Positions 55 through 5,686 of a stretch of DNA of 5,686 nt are shown here, piece after piece. The notes below the pieces were generated by a model. The model saw only the letters and a list, made by a program, of their open reading frames with translations. It did not search any database and was not told where the DNA came from. Positions within the stretch are counted from its first letter, which is position 1, and each line of letters starts with the position of its first letter. Made by a program: the position numbers and the translations under genes. The stretch comes from a virus (Duplodnaviria; Heunggongvirae; Uroviricota; Caudoviricetes): IMG/VR virus record IMGVR_UViG_2671180854_000004; one strand, 5' to 3'.

Positions 55-351
55 TTAACGCAAAATCTCACACTGATGATCCTGAATTTCCTCGGCTGAA
101 GCACGGTTAAGCGTCAGTAGATTTCGTTGTGTCGCCAGCAATACAAATGAGTTATCACTCTGCCGTACCATCGCCAGCCCGTAGCGTCCCATATGTTCCC
201 GCGCCTCAGGTACTTCTTCTGCCAGCATCATAAATGGGCTGCGTTGTACCAGTTCGCTTTCCGTTACCCGACGCGCCAGGTAACGAAGCATCACTGCTGG
301 CAGGCTTTCCACAGTTATTGACAGGACTCCGAGGCGCGGCGATGCCGCTTT
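55..351 (-). CDS. Open frame in +1 register relative to gpA; probably the frameshifted true C-terminal segment of gpA, alternatively a separate small overlapping ORF
   Basis: This frame is open from 351 down to the TAA at 57-55 (annotated ORF 55..312 starts at GTG). Its translation has ordinary protein-like composition, whereas the gpA-frame tail over the same DNA is Ser/Gly/Pro/Ala/Thr-rich. It switches register exactly at the T5/A5 run at 349-353. Confidence 0.35.
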
Positions 352-2230
352 TTAAAGTCAAAGGCTCAACGACCGGAACTTTCGGCACAATGCGCCAGTC
401 CGTCGTTCTGGTGATATGAATATGGCGCGCGCCGAGATGCGGCGCGTAAATGCCGACCACTCTCTCGACCTCTTCCTCGTACTCGTTAACGTCATCCGAC
501 GGGCTACGGGCGACCCTGACAGTCTGACAATCGCGCGGGACATTTGCCCCACCCTGCGCGCTGATATACAGCGCAAAATCGCCACTGTCTGCGGCAGCGC
601 GTGCAGCCTCGACGCGTTCGTCAAACTCATCAGCAATGCTGACGCCGCGAGGCAATTTGCGTAGTTCACGGTAAGCCCCCATTGTCGGCAGACCAACCGT
701 TTTAAATTGCGGGATGCGCCACGTTGACGCCCATGCAGTAACAGCCGCGGCAGTATCTTTCAGAGGTCTGCCGGTATCGTTATCGAGCTGACCATCCAGT
801 GCATAGCCGTCGATATTTTTTGAAATGTATTTCGCGATATACCCCGCAGCACCGCCCCGGTTAAGGTGTTTCGCCTGAAAACGGTTTCGCTCGGCTCCTC
901 TTTCGTCGCCATCCTCTTTGAGCGCGTAGCGACGCATGGTTTCGATAATCTGGTTACGCTGACGTGGATTACAAAAAAGCATCATATGCCAGTGCGGCGT
1001 TCCGTCGTGGTGTGGCTCGACGACACGCAAACCGTAGACCTGTAAATCATTATCCTTGAATGCCGTGCGCATCAGGCTCCAGATGCGGCAGAGATAACGC
1101 TGCGCATCCTTTGGATTAAATGCCTCATCGTTCCAGCCGTGATTTAGCTGGACGGTTTTACTTTCGCCTTTTCCGACCTGACGTGTCGGGTGATACTTTG
1201 ACGGCGCGGTCAGCGTGATAAACATCCCCACATCACCCTCTGCGGCGGCGTAACGCTCAATACCGGCAATGGTGTTCATCAGCTCCATCCGGCGAATTTC
1301 AGGATTAGAAATACTTCCCATCACCTTACTGATAAGGTCGATGCGCTCGCCGGTTTCCCTGTTTTCAAGGTCACACGATTTAAGAAATTCCAGATTTGCC
1401 TGGCGGCGCGCACGCACATCACGAATGGCATGTTTACTGGCATAAGGAGAACGGTCTTTATTCACCTCCCCGACAGCAATCAGTAACGCCTCATGCCAGC
1501 GCATACGCTGACCTTTAAGCTGATGAGTCCACCACTCATCGTTAAACAGACGGGCAATGGCAGAATATGCCTGCCTCGTGGTCATCTGTCCTTTACGGTA
1601 TTTTTTCCAGTAGAGAGGGGAAATATTGAAAGCTCGTGCAGCGCCAGCAACATGACCATACAGATGCGCCTGAGCCTCATCCGTAAACAGCGATTCTTTC
1701 TCGCCATGTGCATCAACCCATGCATCGCAGAGTTCCTCATACATCATGAAAAGCTGCGATGAGATACGGGCGGCAAACTTTTTCAGTTCCTTGTCATTCA
1801 TCCCCGGCAGACGCGCATAATGGTCACGCTCTGCCAGAAACAGCAACGACGCGTCGGTGTTCATTTCATGGCGCTGATTCACGCGCTCAATGCGCGGCCA
1901 TAAACGACGCTGAAAAGTGGATGTGAGGAAATAAAACCCGTGCACCGGGCTTTTATTGCGCCGGATGTAGTCATAGCGTGAAGTAAACAGCGAGCGCAAA
2001 AAGTAAGGCAGGCGGTTAATCGTGGATAAAACACCTTGCACCTGACGCATCTCGTCACGTGTAAGGGGTCTTTCGCGCCCGACAGCCTCGCGTGGCGCGT
2101 TCCATGCATAAGCACCGGTAAACGCCTTACCGGTGCCTGCGGCAAATGCTGATGGAGGGACAAAACGCCCGGAGGCTTTAACGGCCATATGAGCCAAAAG
2201 CCTCTGAACAACGCTTGCTGAGTTGCTCAA
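206..2230 (-). CDS. A: Replication initiation protein, P2 gpA-type rolling-circle (HUH) endonuclease; the current reading frame ends in a probable out-of-frame tail
   Basis: 674-aa ORF. HUH-like motif HWHMM is encoded at 986-994 and the dual-tyrosine motif YIAKYISK at 818-841 (checked codon by codon); this matches the phiX174 A / P2 gpA active-site pattern. The ORF-track start at 2230 is TTG; a more likely start is ATG at 2188-2186 (residue 15, MAVKASG...), with GAGG about 12 nt upstream. Confidence 0.8.
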
Positions 2231-2453
2231 CCTGCGCGTTTAAATCAGCAAAAGACTTTGCGCTTCCGGTCAGAATATCGTGATGCATCATGCCGGAAAC
2301 GAGCTGGCTTAATTTCGGGTAATAACCAACCACCGACAGCCATTCCTGACCGGCGTTTTTACCGCTTTCCGCTCTCTTTTTCTCGTGGAGAATAAACTGA
2401 AAGCTGTCACTGGTAACGACATAACGTTCGCCAATTTCAATACGAATACTCAT
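2178..2453 (-). CDS. Hypothetical early protein (91 aa), in the position of P2 orf83
   Basis: ORF with GGAGAA Shine-Dalgarno; its start overlaps the upstream stop as ATGA (2453-2450); GC about 55%. No recognisable motif. Confidence 0.5.
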   Translation of the reverse strand: MSIRIEIGERYVVTSDSFQFILHEKKRAESGKNAGQEWLSVVGYYPKLSQLVSGMMHHDILTGSAKSFADLNAQVEQLSKRCSEAFGSYGR

Positions 2454-2674
2454 GCCGTTCTCCGGTAATGTTTGTTTTTTGCTTCAAAGACTGACTGACA
2501 GGAAACACAACGCGTGGCTGACGGATAAGCCGCACGACGGGCAGCAGGTATTGGCACGTCACACTCTTCGCAAACCAGCGCAGAAACACCGCAATGTTTT
2601 ACCCTTGCCGCGTTAATCTGGCGCTCCAGTAATTCAGCCTGTTGTTCCTGAATGAAATCTACGTTGTCCGGCAT
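2450..2674 (-). CDS. TraR/DksA-family C4 zinc-finger protein (74 aa)
   Basis: Translation contains CEEC ... (16 residues) ... CVSC, the CxxC-x16/17-CxxC spacing typical of TraR/DksA zinc fingers. AAGGAA Shine-Dalgarno; start overlaps the upstream stop (TAATG). P2-like phages commonly carry such a gene before gene A. Confidence 0.7.
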   Translation of the reverse strand: MPDNVDFIQEQQAELLERQINAARVKHCGVSALVCEECDVPIPAARRAAYPSATRCVSCQSVFEAKNKHYRRTA

Positions 2675-2979
2675 TACCAGTTCCTTTTGTCGTTCAGTTT
2701 CTTAAATTCATCAGCGCAATAGCTGACGATTTCTGTCGTTAATTTTGTCAGTTCATCCACGGAGGAAATTTGCTTGTGGAATACAGCGCGTTTAACAAGT
2801 AAATTGACCACATCAGACAGGAGGTTTAATTCATTCTGATAAATCGCGATAACAGATTCAGTTATGTCGCGTTTTTCTTTATCAAGACAAAGTTGAATAA
2901 GAGATAAATCACCATTTTCCATAACGGCGATTTTTAAGGCGTTATTCAGTAATACAACTGAATGAGAACAGGACATCAA
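2674..2979 (-). CDS. AT-rich hypothetical protein (about 100 aa), candidate acquired cargo (moron)
   Basis: ORF-track start is TTG at 2979; the likely start is ATG at 2976-2974 with a GGAGG Shine-Dalgarno about 8 nt upstream. I counted 111 G+C in 306 nt (about 36% GC) against about 50-55% in the flanking genes; the composition shift coincides with the ORF boundaries. Predicted protein is acidic and helical-looking, with no motif I recognise. Confidence 0.55.
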
Positions 2980-3200
2980 AGCACCTCCCCGCGAGACAAT
3001 CCGATATTGTGAAATTTTTCCGACTCCTGACTGAGCAGCTCGACTATCTCCACGCGGGATAACTCCGCCTTTGTGATATGGCGAATCATGGCGTCAAGAT
3101 GAGAAGAAAAGCGCGTCGCAGCGTCGGCCTGTGCTTCGGTTCTGGCCTGTTGCAGCAGTAATGCGTATTTACCGCACTGATTTTCAGAAACTGTATGCAT
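2976..3200 (-). CDS. Hypothetical early protein (74 aa), in the position of P2 orf80
   Basis: ORF with GGAGAAAG Shine-Dalgarno 5' of the ATG at 3200-3198; its stop overlaps the next start (TGATG); GC about 50%. Confidence 0.5.
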
Positions 3201-3226
3201 GACTTTCTCCAGGCAAAAAGAAGCCC

Positions 3227-3242
3227 CGCACGATTAAGTGCG
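3227..3242 (-). terminator. Weak hairpin followed by a T-rich run on the minus strand, between the B-like gene and the next ORF; possible attenuator or partial terminator
   Basis: CGCAC (3227-3231) / GTGCG (3238-3242) with a 6-nt loop. On the minus strand the stem is followed by GGGCTTCTTTTTG. The stem is only 5 bp, so this is marginal. Confidence 0.2.
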
Positions 3243-3263
3243 TTAAAAACTCTGGTTAATTAT

Positions 3264-3764
3264 TTAATGCAGATATTGCTCTGGTTTTACCGACGTCAGA
3301 ATTGTCGGTGCATACTCAAACAGACTGAATAATTCACGTAATGCACGGAATAAAGCATCACGCCAGTAACATGATTCTTCATTAATTCGCCAGTATGGCT
3401 GGTTGAATTCTTTTTCAGTCAATCCGGCATGCATAAATAAAGTACGACGCTGACTGACTGTTAAAAAACTAATATATGCATACTCACTTGCGCCAACCTG
3501 ACGGCGTTTTGAGAATGCCCCACGCAATTCATCAATTGCACAAACCAGCCGTTCACGTTCGACGTCGTTCATTTCTTCAAAACGCATCGTTGCGTGACGC
3601 TGTTTTAACTGCGCATGGAAGCAAACCGTTAGCCGTTCGCGTTCCATCATCTGATTATAATAATCACATGTATCCTGCCAGCGAGGGACGGCAAGATGCT
3701 TGCCAATTATCCGGCGCATAGCTGCTGGCTGTTTTTCAACGAGATTGAGCGTCATCACTGTCAT
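3264..3764 (-). CDS. Early replication-associated protein, 166 aa; assigned as P2 gpB-like by position and size only
   Basis: ORF with a strong GGAGGG Shine-Dalgarno 7 nt upstream of the ATG at 3764-3762; its start overlaps the upstream stop (ATGA). It lies between the cox-like gene and the small-ORF cluster, as B does in P2. The 5' half is about 50% GC and the 3' half about 37% GC. Homology was not verified. Confidence 0.5.
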   Translation of the reverse strand: MTVMTLNLVEKQPAAMRRIIGKHLAVPRWQDTCDYYNQMMERERLTVCFHAQLKQRHATMRFEEMNDVERERLVCAIDELRGAFSKRRQVGASEYAYISFLTVSQRRTLFMHAGLTEKEFNQPYWRINEESCYWRDALFRALRELFSLFEYAPTILTSVKPEQYLH

Positions 3765-3931
3765 TTCCAGACCCTCCGGCTTTTCAGAAAGGTCAGAGCC
3801 TTTTTTAACGGACTCTGTTTTTTGGTACGGATAATGATTCCCTTGCGTCCCTTCCCGTGGGTGATGGTGAAGTCAATCGCCCTGGGGCTTTCGTTACGCA
3901 ATAACTGAGCAATACAACGCGGCTCATTCAT
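3761..3931 (-). CDS. Small basic hypothetical protein (about 56 aa from the ATG at 3931; 65 aa if started at 3958)
   Basis: Lys/Arg-rich ORF. The longer version would overlap the cox-like 3' end by 25 nt; the ATG at 3931-3929 begins 2 nt after the cox-like stop (TGAttATG). Its stop overlaps the B-like start (ATGA). Occupies the position of P2 orf78. Confidence 0.4.
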   Translation of the reverse strand: MNEPRCIAQLLRNESPRAIDFTITHGKGRKGIIIRTKKQSPLKKALTFLKSRRVWK

Positions 3932-3933
3932 AA

Positions 3934-4206
3934 TCACAACCCCATCCACAAAAGCCATGCATCACGCTGTTCAACCGGTCGGTTATAAAACGCCTCACGT
4001 ACAGCGCGATTAAACTCAGGAATGAAAACCCATTTTTCACCGGCACGAGCCTTCGGTTTGCAAGGATCACGCAATTCAATAATTGGTAATTTATTTGCCT
4101 TCACCATTTCACTGACGGCTGTCTTTGGCTTCCCTAATAAATCAGCAAATTTATCCACATGAACCGCATCAAGCGGATACTGAATCACATAATTTTCAGC
4201 GTCCAT
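3934..4206 (-). CDS. cox: Cox/Apl-like excisionase and early-promoter regulator (about 90 aa)
   Basis: First gene of the minus-strand operon, divergent in position from the repressor gene. The ATG at 4206-4204 has a GAGGG Shine-Dalgarno 8 nt upstream; the ORF-track start at 4221 lacks a good one. Size and C-terminal region (RDAWLLWMGL) fit the Cox/Apl family; this is a recollection, not an alignment. Confidence 0.6.
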   Translation of the reverse strand: MDAENYVIQYPLDAVHVDKFADLLGKPKTAVSEMVKANKLPIIELRDPCKPKARAGEKWVFIPEFNRAVREAFYNRPVEQRDAWLLWMGL

Positions 4207-4282
4207 ATATGGTACCCTCATAGGATCCAGCCCTTTCTAAACCACTCAAAACCGTTTAGACGCTGGTTTATTCTCAAATCAA

Positions 4283-4302
4283 TGGAACCTATATAGGTTC
4301 CA
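4283..4302. promoter_or_regulatory. Perfect 20-bp palindrome TGGAACCTATATAGGTTCCA; candidate operator
   Basis: Verified base by base as perfectly self-complementary. Lies just downstream of the predicted minus-strand early transcript start, over a TATATA element. Confidence 0.55.
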
Positions 4303-4319
4303 GTTTTGAGGGAATTTAG

Positions 4320-4335
4320 TCCCTATATAGGCACC
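4320..4335. promoter_or_regulatory. Second, imperfect copy of the operator motif (TCCCTATATAGGCACC)
   Basis: Shares the 10-bp palindromic core CCTATATAGG, and 9 of 11 positions of the right half, with the 4283-4302 palindrome. Centres are 34 bp apart. It falls inside the spacer of the candidate minus-strand promoter. Confidence 0.45.
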
Positions 4336-4342
4336 ATGTCAA

Positions 4343-4636
4343 ATGAAATTAAGCGAAAAGATTAAGGCCTTGCGTGAGGCTGAAGGGCTAAGCCAATCAA
4401 AATTCTGTGAAATCATAGAGTTACCGCTAAGCACACTTAAAAAATATGAAGGAGGAAACTTTGAACCCGGTGGCACAGCTTTGCTAAAAATCACTATGCA
4501 TCCCACATTCCAAAAATATGCTCTATGGCTTATGACAGATAAAACCGCGCCGGACGCAGGACAAATCGCACCGGCTCTCGCGCACATTGGGCCAGAGTCA
4601 ACAGAGTCCAACCACTCCGCGAAAAGGATTGGCTAA
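4343..4636 (+). CDS. C: Immunity repressor, P2 C-like HTH (XRE-type) protein, 97 aa
   Basis: N-terminal helix-turn-helix-like segment (LSQSKFCEIIELPLSTLKKYE). Sits immediately upstream of, and co-directional with, the integrase and divergent from cox, as in P2. Size is close to P2 C (99 aa, from memory). Shine-Dalgarno is weak. Confidence 0.7.
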   Translation: MKLSEKIKALREAEGLSQSKFCEIIELPLSTLKKYEGGNFEPGGTALLKITMHPTFQKYALWLMTDKTAPDAGQIAPALAHIGPESTESNHSAKRIG

Positions 4637-4705
4637 CTCTATATAAAGATTACATTTTCACCATTTGCTACCAAGATGGTGAATACAGCGCCGGAGGGCT
4701 TTCTT

Positions 4706-5686
4706 ATGGCAATTAAGAAGCTCGATGATGGTCGCTATGAAGTGGACATTAGACCTCGCGGTCGCGACGGAAAACGCATCCGCAGGAAATTCGAAAGAAA
4801 AGCTGAAGCACTAGCATTTGAGCGATACACAATCGCCAATGCCAGTCAGAAAGAATGGGGAGGCCAGCGAGCAGACCGCCGGACTTTGAGTGAGTTGCTG
4901 GACATCTGGTGGAAATATCACGGGCAAAACCACGAGCATGGAACAAAAGAGTTTAATCATCTACTCAAAACCATCAGCGGCATAGGTGATATACCAGTGA
5001 GCAGGATGAGCAAAAGGGCTTTGATGGATTATCGTTCCATGCGACTACGTGATGGTATCAGTGCCGCAACGATAAACCGTGACATGTACCGATTATCCGG
5101 CATGTTCACAAAATTAATTCAATTGGATGAATTTTCCGGGCAACACCCAATTCACGGACTGCCGCCACTGGCGGAGGCCAACCCTGAAATGACGTTCCTG
5201 GAAAAAGCAGAAATCGAAAAACTGTTAAATGTTTTGGCTGGTGATGACTTACTTGTCGCGCTTTTATGTCTGAGCACTGGAGGAAGATGGACGGAAGTTG
5301 CCACGCTAAAACCAGCACAGATTACAAATTGCAGGGTTACCTTCCTGAAAACCAAAAACGGTAAAAAGCGAACCGTGCCGATTTCTGAGGAACTGGAGAA
5401 AAAAGTTAAAGAGGAGGCCAGCGCCAAATTATTCAAAGTTGATTATGAGAAATTTTGCGGGATTTTACGCAGAGTGAAACCTGATATACCACCCAATCAG
5501 GCAACCCACATCCTGCGGCATACATTCGCAAGCCATTTCATGATGAATGGGGGCAATATAATCGCACTGCAACAGATTCTGGGACATGCGAGCATTCAGC
5601 AGACGATGGCCTATGCGCACCTTGCGCCTGACTATCTGCAAAATGCCGTCGCTCTGAATCCACTAAAAGGCGGAGTGACGTTATAA
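4706..5686 (+). CDS. int: Tyrosine site-specific integrase (P2 Int-like), 326 aa
   Basis: ORF-track start at 4676, but the ATG at 4706 has a GGAGGG Shine-Dalgarno 7 nt upstream. Tyrosine-recombinase signatures in the translation: TGGRWTE (box I Arg), HILRHTFASHF (HxxR), LGHASIQQTMAYAHLAPDY (C-terminal catalytic Tyr region). The stop TAA is at 5684-5686, the window edge. Confidence 0.9.
   Translation: MAIKKLDDGRYEVDIRPRGRDGKRIRRKFERKAEALAFERYTIANASQKEWGGQRADRRTLSELLDIWWKYHGQNHEHGTKEFNHLLKTISGIGDIPVSRMSKRALMDYRSMRLRDGISAATINRDMYRLSGMFTKLIQLDEFSGQHPIHGLPPLAEANPEMTFLEKAEIEKLLNVLAGDDLLVALLCLSTGGRWTEVATLKPAQITNCRVTFLKTKNGKKRTVPISEELEKKVKEEASAKLFKVDYEKFCGILRRVKPDIPPNQATHILRHTFASHFMMNGGNIIALQQILGHASIQQTMAYAHLAPDYLQNAVALNPLKGGVTL

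Follow-up and report, generated by a model that had tools for sequence, protein, structure and literature searches.

A short open reading frame in the early operon of a P2-type prophage is much richer in A and T than the genes on either side of it. Is it a piece of acquired cargo, recently imported and exchanged between prophages, or an old gene of the operon itself? A preliminary description, made from the sequence, proposed it as a candidate for acquired cargo. The comparisons reported here point the other way: with high confidence, the ORF is the ortholog of orf81 of phage P2, a DUF5405 gene and a fixed core gene of the P2-type early operon. It is already known – the P2 annotation is decades old, and the family is filed in Pfam as DUF5405.

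The AT-rich gene and its surroundings

Family searches, together with the annotation of the P2 reference genome, identify the window – the whole stretch of 5,686 bases that was analyzed – as the integrase-proximal end of a prophage of P2 type (Peduovirus). Across 275–5686, identity is 96–98% with many P2-type phages and reaches 99% with prophages of E. coli. The phage and prophage matches all end at position 275–279; the 3' end of gene A was lost through a deletion that joined A to cdh, and the prophage is a remnant. The features of the window are as follows.

4676–5686, plus strand: int (family searches, P2 annotation)
4343–4636, plus strand: C repressor (family searches, P2 annotation)
3934–4221, minus strand: cox (family searches, P2 annotation)
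3761–3958, minus strand: orf78 (family searches, P2 annotation)
3264–3764, minus strand: gene B, P2 replication protein B, 166 aa (phrog_235, E = 8e-105; P2 gene B annotation)
3227–3242, minus strand: terminator-like hairpin between B and orf80 (terminator scan)
2976–3200, minus strand: orf80, DUF2732, the upstream neighbor of orf81, 50.7% GC (Pfam DUF2732, E = 4e-10; P2 orf80 annotation)
2984–2988, minus strand: GGAGG Shine-Dalgarno sequence of orf81, within the 3' end of orf80 (visible in the sequence itself)
2674–2976, minus strand: orf81, DUF5405, 100 aa plus stop, ortholog of P2 Orf81, 36.3% GC
2906–2933, minus strand: 11-bp hairpin with a U-rich tail inside orf81, codons 15–24 (scan)
2450–2674, minus strand: orf82, TraR/DksA-type zinc finger, the downstream neighbor of orf81, 50.7% GC (Pfam zf-dskA_traR, E = 7e-11; phrog_54)
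2178–2453, minus strand: orf83, second DUF5405 gene, overlapping the start of gene A (Pfam DUF5405, E = 5e-14)
278–2188, minus strand: replication gene A, rolling-circle initiator, truncated at the 3' end (homology; start from the P2 annotation)

The Pfam family Phage_RepB is recorded on orthologs of gene B, and the product of gene A has 98% identity to the A proteins of P2-type phages. A putative rho-independent terminator is annotated in the P2 record at the place equivalent to the hairpin that follows B, and the genes from orf80 through A all lie downstream of this hairpin.

The orf81 gene runs on the minus strand from an ATG at 2976 to a stop at 2674. The preliminary description gave the correct length of 100 aa but placed the outer end of the ORF at 2979, which includes an in-frame TTG upstream; the 100-aa protein annotated in P2 begins at the ATG. 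Its count of G+C between 2674 and 2979 (111 of 306 bases, 36.3%) is exact. In sliding frames of 303 nt, the GC of the window has a mean of 0.484 and a standard deviation of 0.051, and the lowest frame of all is orf81 itself (0.363, at start 2673). The limits of the drop, at about 2700 and 2970, are in line with the boundaries of the gene. A range of 50–58% GC, which had been given for the neighboring genes, is slightly generous, as orf80 and orf82 both have 50.7% and gene A has 53.5%.

The translational coupling and the ribosome-binding site that had been described are also present as stated. The orf80 stop codon TGA (2978–2976) shares one nucleotide with the orf81 ATG (2976–2974) in the sequence TGATG, the orf81 stop codon TAA (2676–2674) shares one with the orf82 ATG (2674–2672) in TAATG, and the GGAGG at 2988–2984 is 7 nt 5' of the orf81 ATG. 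The chain of overlaps, which range from 1 nt to 11 nt, is unbroken from orf80 to A.

An RNA or DNA element was considered as the cause of the AT-richness and rejected. The opposite strand of orf81 has no ORF of at least 40 aa, a consensus scan found no sigma-70-like promoter site inside or just 5' of the gene, and an Rfam search of the region found no family. There is a single lineage-restricted hairpin, at 2906–2933, with a minimum free energy of −10.8 kcal/mol (z = −5.2 relative to shuffled sequences). All 11 of its base pairs are intact in 83 P2-type alleles, while it is lost in divergent lineages and in a 96-aa allele; its significance is uncertain.

The encoded protein aligns with P2 Orf81 (AAD03303.1; AF063097 27246–27548) over 100 of 100 residues with 92% identity, and has 99% identity to other Peduovirus P2 records. 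Residues 10–95 match positions 1–88 of the 88 in the Pfam DUF5405 profile (PF17399; 113.8 bits against a cut-off of 21.6, E = 5e-33), and phrog_265 is matched with E = 9e-54. Full-length Orf81 is found in 75 phage records; for comparison, an A protein of 95–99% identity is found in 77. In an assembly collection, 3,245 indexed blocks contain the identical protein.

The first impression that the protein has no motif that could be named was accurate: DUF5405 is the only Pfam family matched, and a comparative paper lists P2 Orf80–83 as 'unknown' (PMC3091744). That table was the only literature found on orf80–83, and no paper was found that mentions DUF5405. Orf81 has no family match in NCBIfam. 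PADLOC, which models defense proteins, returned no family at E ≤ 0.1 for orf81, orf83, orf80, orf82 or orf78, and searches of PDB sequences with the single sequence and with a profile returned only noise (best E of 0.02 and 0.27). The protein is acidic, as had been said, but only mildly so (pI 5.6, with 14 D+E and 12 K+R).

The ORF is a real coding gene. Across 49 distinct full-length alleles its dN/dS is 0.129, within the range of 0.03 (B) to 0.23 (orf83) in the neighboring genes, which shows purifying selection on the protein.

Conservation of the slot and the cause of the low GC

If orf81 were cargo – a recent AT-rich import with an anti-defense, host-takeover or exclusion function – it would be expected to vary between prophages, and the preliminary description had suggested a survey of whether P2-like prophages carry different genes between orf80 and the TraR-like gene. 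Three sets of relatives were examined. The first, of 85 loci, was chosen on orf81 itself: orf81 adjoins both of its neighbors in 83 of these, and its GC is 35.8–39.0% (mean 37.5%), compared to 50.9% for orf80 and 51.0% for orf82. The second consisted of 80 viral contigs anchored on the TraR-like orf82, and so was blind to orf81. Here orf81 lies between orf80 and orf82 in all 80, in 78 of them without extra DNA.

The third set comprised divergent relatives, found among 1.84 billion cluster representatives and in a follow-up search. Only 20 of the representatives are of the orf81 type, a small subfamily, which is a point in favor of cargo. The follow-up search recovered orf81-type genes from Citrobacter, Scandinavium, Klebsiella, Serratia, Edwardsiella and Edaphovirga. 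These have 37–68% identity to Orf81 in divergent prophages (about 37% in Serratia), and the order RepB, DUF2732, orf81, TraR, orf83, GPA is kept in prophages of Serratia, Klebsiella and Edwardsiella. In Citrobacter, the prophages retain orf81 although TraR is absent from them. A species-level genome scan with orf81 added only three loci, all in Escherichia species, because the peptide patterns that it uses recover close relatives only.

The low GC is found everywhere that the gene is. Orf81-type genes in the divergent lineages have 35.7–39.3% GC and their neighbors 45–55%; even in a Serratia prophage, the gene keeps its low GC amid neighbors of 50–55%. Because divergent P2-type prophages from four further genera keep the slot, orf81 co-diverges with the phage, its composition remaining constant. 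The preliminary description had named a conserved core gene with equally low GC throughout the P2 family as the finding that would overturn the cargo idea, and within P2-type phages this is essentially what is seen.

Much of the low GC is set by the protein. The GC at codon positions 1, 2 and 3 of orf81 is 0.455, 0.257 and 0.376, with position 2 the lowest. Leu, Val, Asn, Ser, Lys, Asp and Ile are over-represented in Orf81, while Gly, Ala, Arg and Pro are scarce, and the amino acids of the protein combined with the codon usage of the other genes in the window give an expected GC of 0.406. In this codon-usage comparison the observed GC is 0.367 and the window average 0.484, and amino acid composition makes up about 67% (two-thirds) of the deficit. 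The remaining synonymous shortfall (0.039) is about as large as that of cox (0.046) and B (0.038), both core genes. Because the deficit lies mostly in the amino acids and the codon-level part is like that of cox and B, the dip in GC is best read as a property of the protein family. On this reading the low GC does not appear to be a mark of recent foreign origin, though an ancient foreign origin is possible. A sharp dip in GC bounded by an ORF is, alone, no evidence of recent acquisition.

A few features of the locus do resemble cargo. The gene is the lowest-GC stretch in the window and has sharp limits. It has two widespread alleles in which the N-terminal half is swapped, and in some loci an extra gene is inserted just 5' of it. 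A large insert 5' of orf81 in locus L101, at first a candidate for alternative cargo, proved to be an IS1 element within the extra 81-aa ORF and was set aside. Loci with identical Orf81 differ after gene A, where they encode SIR2 with DUF87, a phosphoribosyltransferase-like gene and various unknowns. That position is a documented cargo hotspot of P2, between gpA and gpQ, with 1,650 arrangements in 18,150 loci (PMC9122126), and a later survey also describes minor hotspots, one of them within the int-to-gpA interval (PMC13586616).

Another such feature is the absence of orf81 from several other Peduoviridae: 186, EtG, MHG54, SopEPhi and the Klebsiella phage ST11-VIM1phi8.4. In the 186-like, Fels-2-like and Klebsiella relatives that lack it, the DUF2732 gene is joined directly to the TraR-like gene. 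Phages without orf81 have variable genes between TraR and A, including an RNase T-type exonuclease, Dam methylases, a PAPS reductase and an ASCH-like protein. Because it is absent from these phages and kept in divergent P2-type prophages, orf81 is a lineage-specific yet old addition to the P2-type operon, and this is the only sense of 'acquired' that survives.

The source of that addition may be close at hand. Orf81 and Orf83 give no BLASTP alignment, but both match Pfam DUF5405, and an HHalign comparison of the orf81-type and orf83-type profiles gives a probability of 86.6% (E = 4.5e-6). Judged from these profiles, orf81 is an old and distant paralog of orf83, itself a core gene; the phages 186, EtG, MHG54 and YenM_06.16-2 (of Yersinia enterocolitica) have an orf83-type gene close to A. 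In the simplest view, orf81 would have arisen from orf83 by duplication and divergence, or would have come long ago, as a DUF5405 gene, from another phage. With an invariant slot in the orf82-anchored relatives and in P2, a constant composition, kinship to a core gene, coupling on both sides and no promoter of its own in the consensus scan, recent import as cargo is very improbable.

Predicted structure and function

A structural model of Orf81 was obtained with AlphaFold2. The first run, on a shallower alignment dominated by orf83-type sequences, gave an all-helical model with a pLDDT of 59, which was discarded. Divergent orf81-type sequences were added to the alignment for the second run, and the resulting model has a mean pLDDT of 85.6 and a pTM of 0.71, the predicted fold being dependent on the alignment used. 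In this model strands at residues 5–9, 14–18, 24–32 and 37–46 form a four-stranded sheet (residues 5–46), packed against a helical hairpin (49–66 and 73–98). The protein had been described as helical-looking; the two helices of the model fit this, and the sheet does not.

Profile and predicted-structure searches, which the preliminary description had suggested, were carried out and led to DUF5405, to the paralogy with orf83 and to uncharacterized phage proteins of similar fold. In a library of predicted viral structures, the full-length matches (TM 0.6–0.75) are small uncharacterized phage proteins; no solved structural relative of the fold was found. The matches include DUF5405-named proteins of the Salmonella phage vB_SalP_TR2 and the Morganella phage vB_MmoM_MP1, which are not named P2-like. 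Columns conserved across the orf81 and orf83 types are for the most part hydrophobic, with K33 and C87 in addition, and the Orf81 alignment contains no conserved residues of catalytic type.

In P2 lysogens, C represses the early promoter Pe. The P2 record annotates the operator sites. In the proposed mechanism, orf81 would be one link in the overlapping chain of orf80, orf81, orf82, orf83 and A. Because it is co-translated in this chain, 3' of the terminator that follows B, it would be produced in lytic growth alongside the replication initiator A, and would be silent in the lysogen. Because Pe is repressed by C, Orf81 is expected to be an early lytic product rather than a lysogenic conversion or exclusion factor, and for the same reason a role in superinfection exclusion is unlikely.

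What the protein does can be suggested only tentatively. Orf81 may be a compact domain of a sheet and a helical hairpin, without a catalytic motif, that binds some other macromolecule and so assists early lytic development without being essential to it. Its partner may be a protein of the Enterobacterales host or a component of the replication or early-transcription machinery. This guess comes from the small size of the protein, the lack of conserved residues of catalytic type and an analogy with small early phage proteins. The orf83 gene of 186 (DUF5405) and its neighboring ORFs are annotated 'not essential', and the dispensability of orf81 is inferred by transfer from this paralog. The presence of the family in the Salmonella and Morganella phages also favors a non-essential binding protein, and hints that its target may not be tied to P2-type replication.

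A narrower and more speculative version is that Orf81, and DUF5405 proteins in general, are host-directed early effectors, for example inhibitors of a host defense or modulators of a host replication or transcription factor shared across Enterobacterales, with the hairpin as the conserved scaffold and the N-terminal sheet as the surface that determines specificity. This would account for the alleles that differ in the N-terminal half and for the fold in the Salmonella and Morganella phages, and it is possible, though doubtful.

That Orf81 is a replication initiation protein, a DnaD/DnaB_2-like factor that starts P2 DNA replication with A and B, is improbable. The name comes from phrog_265 and phrog_154, which carry this label, and RefSeq phage records copy it. 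There is a weak Pfam DnaB_2 match at residues 44–71 (E = 0.16), but its 12.1 bits are far under the cut-off of 22 bits. The C-terminal domain of DnaD is helical. Half of the Orf81 model, in contrast, is beta-sheet, and no DnaD-like structure was among the matches listed in the fold search. The position of orf81 between the replication genes B and A, its co-translation with A and the usual place of the orf83-type paralog next to A are consistent with a role in replication. However, the paralog in 186 is annotated as dispensable, DUF5405-named proteins occur outside the phages named P2-like, and annotation tables show no ORF of about 90–100 aa 5' of A that might encode a DUF5405 protein in such A-carrying phages as SopEPhi, SEN4 and ST11-VIM1phi8.4. 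Other RefSeq records name orf81 a 'minor tail protein', and automatic names of this kind are unreliable; neither label has support.

It is also highly improbable that the ORF serves mainly as a translational relay, carrying ribosomes from orf80 to orf82, orf83 and A and masking the terminator-like hairpin, with the protein secondary: the continuous chain of overlaps, the conserved hairpin with its U-rich tail and the 186 record (where A seems to be translated only if translation reaches the end of orf84, and a terminator is annotated as active when A is untranslated) are compatible with this. But the low dN/dS and the confident fold of a domain conserved in the family show selection on the protein itself, the fold family is retained at only 37% identity, divergent lineages and the 96-aa allele have lost the hairpin, and 186-like phages manage without orf81.

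The preferred reading, with little confidence, is that of a small, non-essential early binding protein. As found, orf81 is an ordinary gene of little importance, and the main use of this analysis is as a corrective to annotation. Both orf81 and orf83 are nevertheless conserved early genes of a model phage, and with a confidently predicted fold for Orf81 they are a reasonable target for small-scale genetics or structural work.

Comparison with known genes of P2-type phages

The closest known gene is orf81 of P2 itself. The two share the length of 100 aa, the slot between orf80 and orf82, the overlaps at both junctions and the low GC (37.3% in P2, 36.3% here). The differences are allelic only, and the gene described here sits in a prophage remnant that is cut short within gene A.

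The Orf83 proteins of P2 and 186 resemble Orf81 in belonging to DUF5405, in their similar length and in sharing the operon. The conserved positions in common are L26, Y46, L52, I70 and C87 of Orf81, but the identity between the types is 13–19%. The orf83 type is found in many genera of Enterobacterales and in several genera of Peduoviridae, while the orf81 type is confined to P2-type phages, and orf81 is the more AT-rich of the two (36% vs 46% GC).

Genes old and tin of P2 are expressed from the prophage. Along with the defense systems of the gpA–gpQ hotspot (PMC9122126), they are like orf81 in being low-GC genes of accessory appearance in a P2-type genome. The hotspot genes, however, vary between near-identical phages, whereas orf81 is invariant, translationally coupled and part of the repressed Pe operon.

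Truncation of the prophage within gene A

The prophage in the window is a remnant. The P2 gene A is broken off near position 278, about 110 codons short of its end, and is joined to Escherichia coli sequence, with a chimeric ORF across the join:

1–54: tpiA-cdh intergenic region
55–282: 3’ end of E. coli cdh
55–312, minus strand: chimeric ORF left by the cut in gene A

A comparison with 5,426 complete E. coli genomes gave no case of the junction between gene A and cdh that is found in the window.

Variable sites in related prophages

Citrobacter-type P2-like prophages (compared loci L181 and L182, 1839–2446 and 3501–4075) lack the TraR-like orf82 but retain orf81, which is followed directly by orf83. 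These prophages also encode two additional genes, of 139 and 63 amino acids, between cox and orf78, neither of which has a Pfam match. The insertion site between cox and orf78 may be one of the minor variable sites of the int-to-gpA interval (PMC13586616).

Six other P2-type loci (L183–L188, ca. 7000–8300) all encode an identical Orf81 protein, and their gene content after gene A is entirely different: it may be SIR2_2 together with DUF87, a phosphoribosyltransferase-like gene or genes of unknown function, or the portal gene may come immediately after A. These differences illustrate the gpA-gpQ defence hotspot.

Variants and names of the DUF5405 genes

A second allele of orf81, encoding 96 amino acids, is also widespread (compared loci L006, 3525–4057; L015, L134 and L101), and its protein (P0281) was found on more than 1,000 contigs. 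About 45 N-terminal residues, which form the beta-sheet, are swapped in this allele and the helices are almost the same, with an overall identity of 78%. The 96-aa allele is in every case accompanied by an extra 81-aa ORF, which is inserted between orf80 and orf81. This extra ORF has only sub-threshold winged-helix matches (E of about 0.02), and in L101 it is interrupted by IS1. Some DUF5405 proteins of the orf83 type (P0136, P0137 and similar ones) are recorded as 157-aa products in which PF24187 and DUF5405 are combined; these may be genuine fusions or may result from start-site calls that run two genes together.

The automatic names given to orf81 conflict across the matched phage records (e.g. 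NC_001895, NC_070904 and ON239131), and include ‘replication initiation protein’, ‘minor tail protein’, ‘DUF5405 family protein’ and ‘hypothetical protein’. Neither of the two functional names, replication initiation protein or minor tail protein, was supported.

Hairpins in the early operon

Terminator-like hairpins are enriched over the early operon (window 2100–4350), with 10 found compared to 2.6 ± 1.5 expected from shuffled sequences. Two of the ten are:

3242–3227: known terminator-like site after B
4302–4283: perfect 8-bp palindrome in the Pe/Pc switch region

One hairpin lies inside orf81 itself:

2906–2933, minus strand: 11-bp hairpin with a U-rich tail, codons 15–24 of orf81

This hairpin has a minimum free energy of −10.8 kcal/mol (z = −5.2 relative to shuffles). 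All 11 of its pairs are preserved in 83 P2-type alleles, where the only changes are wobble-compatible; the pairs are not preserved in divergent lineages. It is conceivable that the hairpin acts as a polarity signal of a similar kind to one in the related phage 186, whose record annotates a terminator that is active when gene A is untranslated.
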